From Vermamoeba vermiformis (taxonomy: Eukaryota): DNA of 64,000 bases. Where the stretch lies: NCBI GenBank assembly GCA_045837725.1, contig JBEWZL010000012.1, positions 62,001 to 126,000 on the forward strand. Reading direction: 5' to 3'. Below are positions 1 to 41,301 of this stretch, one piece after another; position 1 is the first letter of the stretch; every line of letters starts with the position of its first letter. A program made the translations under genes and the position numbers. Under the pieces are notes generated by a model. The model made no database searches and had not been told where the DNA came from. It saw only the letters and a list, made by a program, of their open reading frames with translations.

Positions 1-3000
1 CGCTGTCCATGTACTCCATAGACACGTGTGCCAGCATGCTGTCCAACACTGTCACGTGATTGGTCACAATGAACTCGCGGTTCTGTTCAGCGAGCGTGAG
101 GTGCATCAGTGCCAACAGGACACTCTCGCGCAATAGACTGCTCAGCCGTGCGGTCTGACTGCTGTCGTGCTGCACACTCGCTGCGAGCTGGTCGAGGTCA
201 CTGAGCAGCGTCACCAGGGCGCGCAAGACACCTGTCACGCGCATGTCATCCTTAGCTGTCTTGCACAGTGACAACCAACCAATCAGCTGCACGCTGTAGA
301 TGACATCTGCCAGGGACAGGGCACTGCGGTCCACGTGCTCGGTGTGATATCCGTCGTCGGGGAGTGTTCCTAATATGGTCAACACCGTGCGCAGTGCGGG
401 CATGACATCTTGCAGCAGAATCAAGTCGCGCACGTGATTGGCGGTCTGAGCGAGGGTGAGCAGCATGAGCAGCGTGGTCTGACGTATACCAGGGCCGTGC
501 TCTGGATCACAAGCACGTGACAGCGACTTATTTAGCAAGAGCACGAGACTCTTGGTGAGAGTGGCGAGGTGATCGGCATCGATCTGTTGTGTCACGTGAT
601 GCGGATTGTTCATGAGCACGCGGTACATGATCTGCAACACGGCTGTCAAATCGCTGTCCAACAGTGGTTGATTGGTCACGTGATCGCTCAAAAACAGATT
701 TTGAAATCCCGCCAAATCGAGCAGGGTCGTGATGGCATTGCTCTGCTGTGAGAACGCATCGAGTCCGATCTGCGTGCGTGCCACGGCTAATAATAGCTGC
801 ATGCCACTCGTCTTGATGCTGTCTACCAGGGCTTGTTGTGCCTCCGTGTCACTCGGGCCTGAACTTTGCACTTGTTGCGTCATGTCGAACATCACGGGAT
901 TGGTGCTATTTTTGGGAGTGAACAGCGCGGCATCTTTCGTCACGTGACGACGCGAGGCGAGCACGGTGAGCAAGAGATCGACCAATCCGTGCTGCGCGAG
1001 CACTACGAGCACGTGATCGGTGTCAGCGAGCGATTGACACGCGCGAATGACATTGTACTGCAGCTGCAACAGACGCGTGTCATTCGGGGCACTCTGCGCG
1101 GCACGGTGCGACAGTCCCAGCACGGCAATCAAGTACTGCAAAGATTGCGCTGCCACCAGTCGGGGCCACAGTCCGCGATGCTGGCACAGCTGCACGATCA
1201 CGCGGCAACCGTTGTAAACACCCGCGAGATCTCCCTCGCTGCCCTGGTGTGTGAATCCAGTCAGGCCACTCACCAGGGCATCGAACTGCACGCGGGACAG
1301 CTGTCGTTCGTCGCGCACGTGCTCCACGATGTTTCCCAGCAAAAATGTGGCAAAGTCACGTGTCTGCTTGTCCGATGAGCCGAGCAGATTGATGACACGT
1401 GTCAAACTCGGATCACTGGCGAGCAGGCTGTCGACACGTGATCGATCGCCCGAATTGGTGCTGGTGATCAGTTCGCGCAGTGCCAGCAAGCGCCCTTCGC
1501 GGTGTTCAGATGCCAGCACGGCTATTAATAGCTCCACGCCACCCTGTGCCACCACACTCGACCACGTGCGCGGATCTTGCAAGCTGGCTGCTGTCACTGC
1601 TGCCACTAACTTGCCTAATAAGGCAGGGGACAACTCGTGCTCGACGATGAGTGTTACCAAAATAGGCAGTAGATCGCGTGATTGATCAGGGCTGGACTGC
1701 AAAGATAGCAGCAAGTCTACCGTGGCTTCAATTGGGGGAAGTTTTTCCGCAGGTGGTTGTGCCGAGGCTAAAAATAGCGACAGATTGCGTTTCAAGCTCG
1801 CGATGAGGTCCGGTGACTCGACCAGGGCAGCACGTGACTGCGGGTGTTGCTTCACCATGGTGGACAGCACGTGCACCAGGGCCAGTGCTTTTTTCATTTC
1901 CATTTTAGGATCAGTCACGTGCTCGTCGCCCTGGTTGAGCATGTTGCAGAGTGCCAGCACGCCACCCATGTTGAACCACGTGACAGCAACGCTCGCATCG
2001 AGATCGATCAGCCGCGCTAATAATAGCAGCAGATAGTACTTGAGCTCGCTGGAGATTGTCGCCGAAAATAGATTCTCGACTAATTGCGGCAACAGCTGAT
2101 CTTTCTGCGCGGCAAAGAATTGGCGGTAGCGCTCGTCTTCACTGAACAGCGCGAGTAATTCCGCTGCACTTAATTTGGCAAGAGCCGATGATTTGCTGTC
2201 CGCTGCTATAATAGGCAAGAGATGTGCCAGTGCGCCCACGTTGAAGACGTTGTCTCTATTTTTAGCACTGATGCGACAGACGTTGAGCAGCACACTGACC
2301 GCTTGATCACGTGACTGCGTGTTCTGCGAGGACAGCAGTGCCACCACCGAGCTCAGTGTGCCCGAAATAGCGCCAATGTGTTCGCGAATCTGCTCGTCGT
2401 TGGCCATGTTCTTCAGAATGTCGGTCACGTGACGCTGAACTTTGCCGATCTGCGCTGCAGAGGTCAAGAGTGCCACCAGCGCGGTGAGTGGCCCCTTGCC
2501 ACCATTCCAGAGCACTTGGCGACACTGCGCGTGCGTGGTCAGATGTGACAGCAGTCGTGCCGCACGTGATCGGAAATTTCCCTGACCGTTGCCCGTGATG
2601 ACATTTGACAGGCGTGTCAACAGCGCCGACAGCTCGTCGAGTCCTGCCACCACATCGATCACCAAAGTGCCACCTGCGCGCGAGGGTGCTGTCCACTGTG
2701 CCAGGGCACTGGTGGCAATGGATGAAATTTCATCACGTGAACCCATCACGCGCTCCACAATGGCCGCCAATCCTCCGCAGTCCACTGCTTGACGCGAAAT
2801 TTCAGTGTCGTCACGTGACAGTGCAGCGAGTGATTTGAGTGCGGGACCGAGCACTGCCACGTCATCACTGCTCATCGCAATGCCGACCAGGGCCTGCAAT
2901 GCCCCGTGTTGTGCCAGGGCACTCGAGACCACTTTGCCTTTTTGGGACAATTTTCCGACGACTTCAACGGCACAGTTCCTAATTCGGTCTTGCTTGCTGG

Positions 3001-40501: not shown

Positions 40502-41301
40502 TTATACATTCGACTTGACGTAAATGAGCCAAGCAGGCATGACTTGACTCAAGTCTTTGAAGTTATAGGCGTCCTTCGTGGAATCAAACGTGAAGTCGCC
40601 AAAGTCACCAGCTGCGTTACAAATGAAGGTCAGATCTGCTCGATTAATTAATTAATTACGATACGTACCTCGACCCAAAGCAACACGACATAAGAGAATT
40701 TGGTGGTCAGGCGCGTGGTGAATAGCATCGACTGGATCCATGTACAAAGTGCCCGCACCAGCGGCCTTGAAACCGTTCTGCAAGACATTCTTGATGCCTT
40801 GTTCAGTCGAGGCGTAGAACAAGTGAATAGTGTTCAATTTTTGACCACCTGGCATCTTTCGTTCAAGTTCTGTGCGTCGCTCTTCGAATACTTGCAAGTG
40901 CGCTGGATCCCGTTGATCAGAAAAATTGGTATTAATATTGATCGAACGTTACCTTTGGCTGGCTTGACTTGCTGCAATACAGAAATGTGCCACGTATTGG
41001 TCTTCTTGTTCTGCTTGTCCCAGTAGTGTTGTTTGAGGAAGCTGACTAGGGCCGATATTATTAGCATCATTTTTAAAATAAATTATAAACATTATTTCTA
41101 ATTCTAATTGTTGAATTGACACTGCGGAGTGCCATTAAAATTCGTTAATAAAACCAAACTAATTTCCAAATTTATTCGACAATAATCTAACAGAATCTTT
41201 TTCGATAATACACCGATATGCTTCGAGTGTAAGCACTGTCATATGTTACTATAAATCTCACACTTACTCTCCTTATCACCGACTGTCTTCAATTCTGCCA
41301 T
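40502..41301 (-). CDS. Small (about 150 aa) stand-alone PARP-catalytic-like protein, degenerate
   Basis: Four spliced exons give FEERRTEL...IHLFYASTEQGIKNVLQNGF..GAGTLY...ILLCRVALGR...QVMPAWLIYV. This is collinear with the PARP pattern LFHGT..I..NGF..G.G.YF..LLCRV.LG..Q..P.YLI.Y. Confidence 0.68.

Follow-up and report, generated by a model that had tools for sequence, protein, structure and literature searches.

Cyanobacterial genomes carry HIP1 (GCGATCGC), described in PMC5861425 as an exact short palindrome that is 15- to 300-fold over-represented inside open reading frames (ORFs) and between them and imprints coding sequence. According to the same paper, its function was obscure for decades, selection and biased repair were debated as its cause, and its sites are conserved between genomes and periodic at 10-90 kb, a conservation that was put forward against neutral drive (PMC5861425). 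HIP1 is also recognised by DNA methylases (PMC13756078). Here we analyse a 64-kb stretch of nuclear DNA from a microbial eukaryote, Vermamoeba vermiformis (contig JBEWZL010000012.1, positions 62,001 to 126,000; hereafter the window), in which some gene bodies are filled with a small vocabulary of short words. A first-pass annotation had likened these words to HIP1, and the comparison is apt at the level of statistics: the window words are also hyper-abundant and exact, and they imprint coding sequence. Instead of a single octameric palindrome, however, there are at least six unrelated words, of which one is not a palindrome and another has a degenerate core, and the genome that carries them is eukaryotic, with spliceosomal introns. 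Unlike HIP1, the words are limited to the gene bodies of some genes; a protein-level comparison showed no extra conservation of their sites.

DNA uptake sequences (DUS) of the Neisseriaceae and uptake signal sequences (USS) of the Pasteurellaceae are 9-12 bases long, occur about once per kb in both orientations and all frames, and are driven by biased DNA uptake and recombination. The window words follow this pattern in their use of all frames and orientations, and also in their preference for weakly constrained coding positions, their recurrent peptides and their lineage dialects, traits that DUS and USS also have. In contrast to uptake sequences, several different words coexist in the window, promoters and gene starts are avoided, and nothing suggests an uptake route. 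The periodic A/T clusters (PATCs) of Caenorhabditis elegans are 10-bp-phased A/T runs in introns, tied to permission for expression in a repressive setting. Like PATCs, the window words are a non-coding signal in the DNA within genes, very unequal from one gene to the next; unlike them, they are exact, unphased and mostly exonic. General regulatory factors, roadblocks and high-occupancy target (HOT) regions, among them yeast Cbf1, Reb1, Abf1 and Mcm1 and the HOT regions of worms, shape chromatin or stop polymerase. The window words share with such sites the consensus of abundant factors, including the RTCACGTG and CC(W)6GG types, and clusters that mix word types. The known sites lie at promoters, gene ends and centromeres at about one per gene, whereas the window words occur every 50-70 bp through coding sequence.

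The window words form a signal that acts at the DNA level, is made by substitution, overrides codon preference, reshapes peptides and is limited to gene bodies, and that recurs at other loci with a vocabulary that differs among relatives. No account of words of this kind in any eukaryote turned up in word searches of open-access papers.

Exact words in excess of null models

The material comprised the window and ~45 kb of dense metagenome loci found via one of the words. Gene models were ORF-based and are approximate. Genes in the window are closely packed with short GT..AG introns, and introns of 53-135 nt were backed by RNA reads; the reads came from a relative rather than the same strain (run X21, in which 4245 of 5830 mapped reads were 90-95% alike).

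Whole-window counts were compared with 100 dinucleotide-preserving shuffles. GACACGTGTC was observed 20 times (0.09 expected, shuffle maximum 1), TGACASSTGTCA 30 times (0.04 expected), ACCAGGGC 28 times (0.94 expected, maximum 3), TTCASTGAA 20 times (1.03 expected) and CYWWWWWWRG (CYW6RG) 67 times (10.25 expected, maximum 18). CACGTG was present at 146 sites, against ~23-68 expected from Markov models of order 1 to order 3, and the 16-mer TGACACGTGTCAAACA was present eight times. The same word families ranked first in a blind search of the window for enriched 8-mers. The vocabulary comprises about six words: TGACA-SS-TGTCA, RTCACGTGAY/AGCACGTGAC, CYW6RG, TTCASTGAA, GAAATTTC and ACCAGGGC. CCAATCA, which had been called frequent, is a weaker member: it was enriched, but only ~3.4-fold (33 observed, 9.62 expected, maximum 18).

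The first-pass annotation had placed several word families far above chance inside gene bodies, and the excess proved stronger than it claimed. It persisted in dinucleotide shuffles and in synonymous shuffles of the large word-rich genes. Further details of the annotation changed. The excess of E-box palindromes stood, but not as a single class: it divides into two families, TGACA-SS-TGTCA and RTCACGTGAY/AGCACGTGAC. The saturation, proposed to reach 41 kb, ends near 29.3 kb, with 122 of 146 CACGTG and all 28 ACCAGGGC sites in the first 30 kb.

The ARM/HEAT-FYVE gene (ARM) at the window edge was examined with a protein-keeping synonymous shuffle. CACGTG occurred 25 times against 8.7±2.0 (maximum 15 in 200 shuffles), ACCAGGGC 13 times against 2.2, CYW6RG 16 times against 0.5 and TTCASTGAA four times against 0.1. 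This shuffle is conservative because the protein itself bears the word imprint. Enrichment under codon- and dinucleotide-preserving models, a check set in advance, persisted in ARM, where CACGTG remained significant when synonymous swaps also kept dinucleotides (25 vs 12.0±1.8, maximum 17 of 60). In the ORF of a membrane protein resembling dolichol kinase (DOLK-like), the same swaps left ACCAGGGC significant (6 vs 0.6, maximum 2) but not CACGTG (14 vs 10.2±1.7, maximum 14). Several small ORFs showed no individual significance in synonymous-codon controls.

These controls bear on whether the words are a special feature at all, or whether codon usage, GC content, dinucleotides or repeated peptides yield them as a by-product. 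Composition accounts for part of the CACGTG excess, as the order-3 Markov model expects 68 of the 146 sites, and the CACGTG count of the DOLK-like ORF under the strict swaps also agrees with a by-product. GC content is not the cause of the words, because the ORF at 28517-29173 (GC 0.61) contains none. The excess persists in dinucleotide and synonymous shuffles, and the words occur in all frames, in introns and in flanks, and use rare codons. A by-product is already contradicted by these observations, and we give it almost no credence.

Palindromic 8- and 10-mers as a class, excluding ACGT-core words, were 1.4- to 1.8-fold over-represented in the window and the dense loci, compared with 0.95-1.2 in control loci. 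This excess was set aside and is not relied on, since a mosaic of AT-rich and GC-rich DNA raises counts of this kind and may be its cause.

Like dimer sites, the words are sharp and for the most part symmetric. In the first 30 kb, TGACA..TGTCA halves occurred 26 times with a 2-bp spacer, never with a spacer of N0, N1 or N3, and twice with N4; the TGACA-SS-TGTCA centres were CG (13), CC/GG (11) and GC (2), and the consensus extends to (G)TTTGACA..TGTCAAA(C). The extended form TTGACA-SS-TGTCAA equals the DNA TTGACAGCTGTCAA that was co-crystallised with two TGIF1 homeodomains (PMC6158717). By its sequence, the GACACGTGTC family is closer to a TALE-homeodomain dimer site than to a bHLH site. TTGACAGCTGTCAA occurs as such in the window, and the TGACA halves and 2-bp spacer of the TALE (TGIF/MEIS class) site are kept at 30 sites. 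The window differs in that its commonest centre is CG, not GC, and in that its sites lie in gene bodies at ~0.9/kb.

Other words show a partial likeness to known sites. CACGTG fell into the 10-mer classes AGCACGTGAC (16), ATCACGTGAC (8), GTCACGTGAC (6) and ATCACGTGAT (6), flanks that we take to be class-typical of bHLH/bHLH-ZIP sites; the core and flanks of the E-box are present (146 sites) but not its placement in promoters or enhancers. CYW6RG, with 54 of 67 sites in the first 30 kb, has the sequence pattern of MADS-box sites (SRF CC(A/T)6GG or MEF2 CTA(A/T)4TAG), and its degenerate A/T core is typical of protein recognition. TTCASTGAA lacks the degenerate centre of STAT-type (TTCN3GAA) and HSF-type (GAAnnTTC) sites, as 20 of 33 TTCNNNGAA share the one centre A-S-T and relatives use TTCATGAA, and it is thus an exact word. 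CCAATCA is spread over gene bodies and both window halves, without the promoter placement (about -60 to -100) of an NF-Y CCAAT box. The names bHLH, MADS, STAT and NF-Y are, for these words, resemblances only.

Intragenic cis-regulation would give such resemblances a direct role: in a compact genome with spacers of 400-1000 bp, enhancer-like clusters for condition-specific factors of MADS, bHLH-ZIP, TALE, HSF/STAT and NF-Y types may lie in the exons and introns of regulated genes, and housekeeping genes would need none. The words resemble consensus sites of old eukaryotic factor families. The identity of TTGACAGCTGTCAA with the TGIF1 site (PMC6158717), the mixing of word types in clusters as in HOT regions, the variation of density gene by gene and the presence of the same word in a compact non-coding module of another organism (described below) are consistent with regulation. 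However, no known enhancer comes near 15-20 words/kb over 4-5 kb of gene, low-level housekeeping genes (mitochondrial IF2, BCS1, dolichol-kinase-like) are among those most affected, promoter-side spacers are without words, and site positions do not look conserved. We regard intragenic cis-regulation as improbable.

Imprint on codons, peptides and gene layout

The words leave a clear imprint on the encoded proteins. Word-rich ORFs contained 45 His-Val (HV) dipeptides against 14.1 expected from composition, 42 of them written as CACGTG (55% expected from codon usage), and 17 Ala-Leu-Val (ALV) tripeptides against 4.9 expected, 14 of them written as GCCCTGGT (13% expected). Word-poor ORFs contained nine His-Val (8.2 expected; four as CACGTG) and four Ala-Leu-Val (2.4 expected; none as GCCCTGGT). 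The peptides HV, ALV, SRD and NQG were 3- to 10-fold enriched. Codons within words make up 7% of the total yet contain 14 of 28 TTA, 10 of 28 CTA and 13 of 35 ATA. ARM and its 92% orthologue P0196 share the imprint (HV 12 and 9, ~3.8 expected; SRD 4 and 5, 0.4 expected; NQG 4 and 3, 0.2 expected), and a 33% ARM homologue is without the HV, SRD and NQG imprint.

Insertions or footprints were considered as the origin of the words and were rejected in the cases that could be checked, as BCS1 and IF2 words lie on ungapped conserved peptides. In BCS1 the words fall on peptides common to mouse BCS1 without gaps (YQG, RPGR, TN and RG), so that the words there are not insertions; in IF2, ACCAGGGC at 5905-5912 lies on a conserved E-P-G-L peptide. 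The only gap between ARM and P0196 is an intron. The words arise by substitution, at the cost of codon preference and protein. Their signal acts at the DNA level, and frame, codon usage and dinucleotides fail to explain it.

Words lie in exons, short introns and post-stop flanks, and the densest genes carry one word per ~50-70 bp. Different frames and strands had been proposed, and both are used: CACGTG occurs 45, 37 and 15 times in the three reading frames, ACCAGGGC 11 times in sense and 16 times in antisense orientation, and CCAATCA nine and five times. The most heavily written gene is ARM (ARM/HEAT-FYVE(-WW); 2-4609, minus strand, open at the window edge, identified by Pfam), with 68 words or 14.8/kb. 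Its core at 3065-4054 (minus; aa 186-515) is word-free, deeply conserved and the best-conserved part relative to the 33% homologue, and has much stronger codon bias than the rest of the gene (GC3 0.82 vs 0.65). This agrees with the earlier proposal that words gather where protein constraint is weak, as does the near absence of words from conserved genes. A short in-frame intron of ~51-54 nt, with approximate ends, is placed at 4088-4141 (minus) by a 17-residue gap in P0196 and a GT..AG candidate. It contains one CYW6RG word and one near TGACA-type word. The 1536-codon ARM ORF reads through this intron, which ORF-based annotation would miss.

The mitochondrial-type IF2 gene (5480-7463, plus; Pfam) has 12.4 words/kb in its N-terminal exon and 3.9/kb in its C-terminal exon. 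An RRM-protein gene with a 475-nt post-stop flank (together 9006-10317, plus) has 10.8 words/kb in the gene and 14.7/kb in the flank (9843-10317), which is common to the convergent ribosome recycling factor gene. The DOLK-like membrane-protein gene and its downstream flank occupy 14700-16466 (minus); the ORF has 16.4 words/kb, five words lie within 180 nt past the stop, and no Pfam match was found for the protein. A second post-stop flank measured, at 14245-14879, has 6.3 words/kb. In the gene of a Cys-rich surface-type protein (16690-21352, plus; start approximate), which has several introns of 44-75 nt, exons carry 13-22 words/kb and words occur in the introns too. The BCS1 AAA-ATPase exon (21411-22433, minus; Pfam) has 8.8 words/kb, and the 3' part of RRP4 (23846-24215, plus) has 18.5/kb, compared with a word-free first ~450 nt (23415-23762).

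Conserved genes and the ORF-free island had been described as sparse in words, and this holds: the MTR4, NPL4, G6PD, phosphorylase, proteasome and AN1 ORFs have 0-1.7 words/kb and the island has 0.9/kb. The second half of the window (30001-64000), with genes for a proteasome subunit, an MPN-domain protein, MTR4, NPL4, G6PD and glycogen phosphorylase, is word-poor throughout, introns included (CACGTG 0.71/kb, ACCAGGGC 0). AT-rich spacers mostly have 0-3 words/kb though their composition favours CYW6RG, and promoter-side spacers likewise have 0-3. Around gene starts, which are approximate, the first 200 nt of 10 genes contained one word in 2000 nt and the next 200 nt contained 10; later 200-nt bins of rich genes contained 3-4 words each. 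Sparse gene starts can be seen, for example, from 16466 downwards, from 22845 downwards and from 23330 upwards.

Short introns of word-rich genes carry words, as judged from candidate introns and a reading by eye, with one intron independently supported. Three TGACA-SS-TGTCA words lie at 27004-27248 (plus), of which two make up the final 17 nt of candidate short introns (…TGACACGTGTCAAACAG). At 27068-27253 and 10264-10318, several candidate short introns end in a T-type word plus AG (…TGTCAAACAG or …TTTGACAG), and two candidate introns begin with GTAAGTCACGTGA, so that words overlap candidate splice-site contexts.

If the words acted in the transcript, for example in splicing, localisation or RNA-RNA pairing between palindromes, their confinement to transcribed regions, introns and post-stop flanks included, and the T-type words at candidate intron ends would both follow. 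Against such RNA-level signals, the non-palindromic words occur in both orientations in the numbers given above, the same words are found in introns and in all frames of exons, and a strictly two-fold symmetric arrangement with one fixed spacer speaks for double-stranded DNA. The chance of an RNA-level role seems to us very slim.

The spacing of words was irregular. The profile of pair distances was flat from 20 to 600 bp without a period, and only gaps below 20 bp were scarce; the gap coefficient of variation was 0.67-0.73 in the densest genes, against 0.8 from 10-bp exclusion alone. Word order showed no preference, with same-type neighbours only marginally in excess (116 vs 103±7.3). A nucleosome-positioning code, one of the options first suggested, is not supported: gaps are ~50-70 bp, and neither a word order nor a periodicity up to 600 bp was seen, be it the ~10 bp of PATC-like signals or the 150-200 bp of nucleosomes. 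A DNA-modification system, in the form of a link to heavy CpG methylation, fares no better, with CpG observed/expected at 1.00-1.14 and CATGTG/CACATG present six times against 122 CACGTG in the first 30 kb.

Relatives, dialects and turnover

Metagenome contigs were scanned with the 16-mer, which gave at least 119 loci. Loci were called saturated when CACGTG exceeded 1.5/kb and at least one other word was present; this applied to 10 of 119 among the metagenome loci listed and to none of six viral loci. The viral contigs, with the 16-mer once in each of the six loci and ordinary word densities, were considered and dismissed as chance matches, and served as a negative control. None of the 125 loci (119 metagenome and 6 viral) matches the window at E<=1e-10. 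The only orthologous pair of saturated loci (L027 and L124) is the same locus at 99.95% identity. For vocabulary counts, 12 hand-picked dense loci were arranged in three groups, with L039 treated separately and L098 and L124 excluded.

Blind 8- and 10-mer searches in the dense groups recovered GACACGTGTC, RTCACGTGAY, CTAAAAATAG-type words and GAAATTTC. Ten unsaturated control loci (100 kb) had CACGTG at 0.27/kb and no TTCASTGAA. As to whether the words are confined to the window or to one reading frame, a further check set in advance, independent metagenome contigs share the core vocabulary and all frames are used. The vocabulary nevertheless has dialects: ACCAGGGC occurs at 0.93/kb in the window vs 0-0.13/kb in the groups, and TTCATGAA at 0.03/kb in the window vs 0.20-0.37/kb in the groups.

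An AT-rich contig of another organism (L016, GC 0.39; also L099 and L125) carries a non-coding T-type cluster at 2490-2580, in which two copies of the 18-bp T-type palindrome and two GACACCTGTC lie within 90 bp. By its sequence, this cluster looks like a conventional binding-site module built with the same word.

Site turnover was assessed against P0196 at the protein level and against relative X21, for which 37 among the 40 listed differences were used (1084 more exist), so that the numbers are small. Codons in words differed from P0196 in 18 of 202 cases (8.9%) and other codons in 93 of 1317 (7.1%); in the word-rich part of ARM the counts were 10 of 162 and 54 of 859. Word peptides were intact in P0196 in 53 of 70 cases, about as 93% identity predicts. 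In X21, the IF2 ACCAGGGC at 5905-5912 differs at three third-codon positions, all synonymous.

These comparisons do not bear out the first option of the earlier annotation, in which bound sites are shielded from a mutational process and outlive unbound sequence. Words are commonest where constraint is weak, as shielding would have it, and two CACGTG near the IF2 site are unchanged in X21 over 116 bp with 13 listed differences, although ~1.3 changes were expected and the result is not significant. But motif codons diverge as fast as others, one word differs at all three of its third-codon positions, the 20- to 700-fold enrichment would demand an equal and implausible cut in mutation rate, and the choice of synonymous codons towards the word stays unexplained. 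Shielding appears highly improbable.

Neutral molecular drive is another reading: sequence-specific repair, nicking or gene conversion would turn near-cognate DNA into exact words that have no function for the cell, as has been suggested for HIP1 and, in a different way, for uptake sequences. Words would then build up wherever they escape removal by selection. The words follow an exact consensus and include long exact forms such as the repeated 16-mer, and one-mismatch forms of TTCASTGAA are unenriched (16 sites in the first 30 kb, other one-mismatch forms 3 vs ~8.7, both strands). Frames, orientations and word order look random, motif codons have no extra conservation, one site is absent from a relative owing to three synonymous differences, density drops as coding constraint rises, and relatives differ in their ACCAGGGC and TTCATGAA densities. 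Drive explains the exactness, the dialects and the lack of site conservation better than selection on site density does. It sits poorly with the least constrained DNA, as AT-rich spacers, the 2.3-kb island and the word-poor half with its introns are near chance; drive would need extra assumptions here, namely promoter purging, a young repeat or a transcription-coupled process. Six or more unrelated words would require as many specific activities, and CYW6RG, with its degenerate W6 core, does not resemble the site of an enzyme. We know of no such molecular drive in eukaryotes. On balance we consider drive the main rival explanation, though a somewhat unlikely one.

We favour, at a probability of roughly 0.4, the reading that the words are sites of a few, mostly dimeric, DNA-binding proteins and that a weak pressure for site density makes them accumulate in gene bodies. 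Symmetric words, a fixed spacer, one word's degenerate A/T core and agreement with a solved homeodomain site suggest binding by such proteins to double-stranded DNA. A weak directional pressure would favour many sites in gene bodies, in that selection would act on site density; a high density might, for example, hold genes of low expression in a chromatin state that is coated with protein and permitted. This pressure would compete with codon preference and protein constraint, so that words would accumulate where the sequence is free and spare deeply conserved segments and conserved, presumably well-expressed genes. Promoters and the first ~200 nt of genes would stay clear of words because factors bound there would interfere with initiation. 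Individual sites would turn over while density is maintained. Protein binding, selection on density and a chromatin role are what we infer from the sequence.

Selection on density is favoured because the least constrained DNA (spacers, repeat island, word-poor half) is unfilled, and because the exclusion from gene starts looks like avoidance of active sequence. It fits a pressure that beats codon preference in word-rich genes, which are apparently weakly expressed judging by cross-strain RNA, and not in conserved segments and genes; that alters amino acids where tolerated; and that spares promoters and gene starts and permits single sites to turn over.

Several observations weigh against selection on density for bound sites. 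Close relatives use different vocabularies, as drive systems typically do; for ancient factor families this would be odd. There is neither a spacing rule nor a word order. Motif codons and word peptides are no better kept in P0196 than their surroundings, and TTCASTGAA is exact, although real binding sites tend to be fuzzy. The link to low expression, a check set in advance, was weak: word count and RNA depth in the relative's reads were not correlated over all 30 bins (rho -0.16, p 0.39), and a correlation was seen after removal of four bins in or beside the repeat island (rho -0.41, p 0.04, n 26); this relation is confounded by the poor cross-strain mapping of fast-evolving genes.

Other features of the window and wider meaning

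Pfam named genes for the ARM/HEAT-FYVE protein, mitochondrial-type IF2, the RRM protein, ribosome recycling factor, a BAR protein and BCS1, and for RRP4, the proteasome subunit, the MPN-domain protein, MTR4, NPL4, G6PD and glycogen phosphorylase. Close homologues were found only among metagenome proteins (phosphorylase 99-100%, 83% and 76% identity; NPL4 87%, 83% and 61%), and the closest homologues from named organisms are distant (phosphorylase 63-70%, NPL4 33-38%). Parts of the window are also present in water, soil and aquifer metagenomes. The NPL4 homologue at 50452-51495 (minus) has a C-terminal UBA domain, a combination found at >40% identity only in metagenomes. No RNA family was detected by Rfam anywhere in the window.

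The ORF-free island (10873-13158) is of the dispersed-repeat type and multi-copy in metagenome runs: in three runs, contig depth at 11338-12671 reaches ~4-10x the level of adjacent bins, suggestive of a dispersed repeat. No reads of the relative's RNA run fell in the island. Stretches like a tRNA T-arm lie near 12460 and 12560, and ARAGORN found no tRNA in the island. Two metagenome runs also show spikes of contig depth at 22010-22676 (218x and 32x), accompanied by unrelated GC-rich loose ends; these spikes are likely AAA-ATPase genes of other organisms mapped onto the conserved BCS1 domain at 85% likeness, not copy number. A coding tandem repeat rich in Glu, Arg and Lys occupies 25054-27035, with periods of 24, 39, 54, 87 and 108 and long ORFs open on both strands; it has few words despite a GC content of 0.57-0.60. 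The AN1 zinc-finger gene at 7336-8669 is by far the most expressed stretch in the relative's RNA run (summed depth 111-742 vs 0-15 elsewhere). Its many opposite-strand joints and loose ends may stem from library artefacts, or from a transcript that is structured or rearranged in that strain.

Taken at its widest, the pattern raises a possibility that we hold tentatively: a whole lineage of free-living protists may, by synonymous and non-synonymous substitution, write exact protein-binding words from a small vocabulary that evolves into its transcription units, up to 15-20% of some genes, as a eukaryotic counterpart of HIP1 and uptake sequences with dialects that differ by species. The words would be read by abundant proteins to mark or license the organism's own weakly expressed genes, in contrast with the repeat island and the spacers, which lack them, or would be the product of a selfish drive that reshapes proteins.

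If the pattern is genome-wide, a large part of the synonymous sites of a eukaryote, and a measurable fraction of its amino acids, is set by a DNA-level force unrelated to protein function. This would bear on the modelling of codon usage and protein evolution, on how DNA-binding proteins read gene bodies, and on whether hyper-abundant words are selected or driven, a question still open for HIP1. With many sites, several words and natural dialects, selection and drive should be separable once accessibility maps and the genomes of strains are compared. Promoter finders that rely on motifs, and gene finders that rely on codons, will be misled by such genomes.

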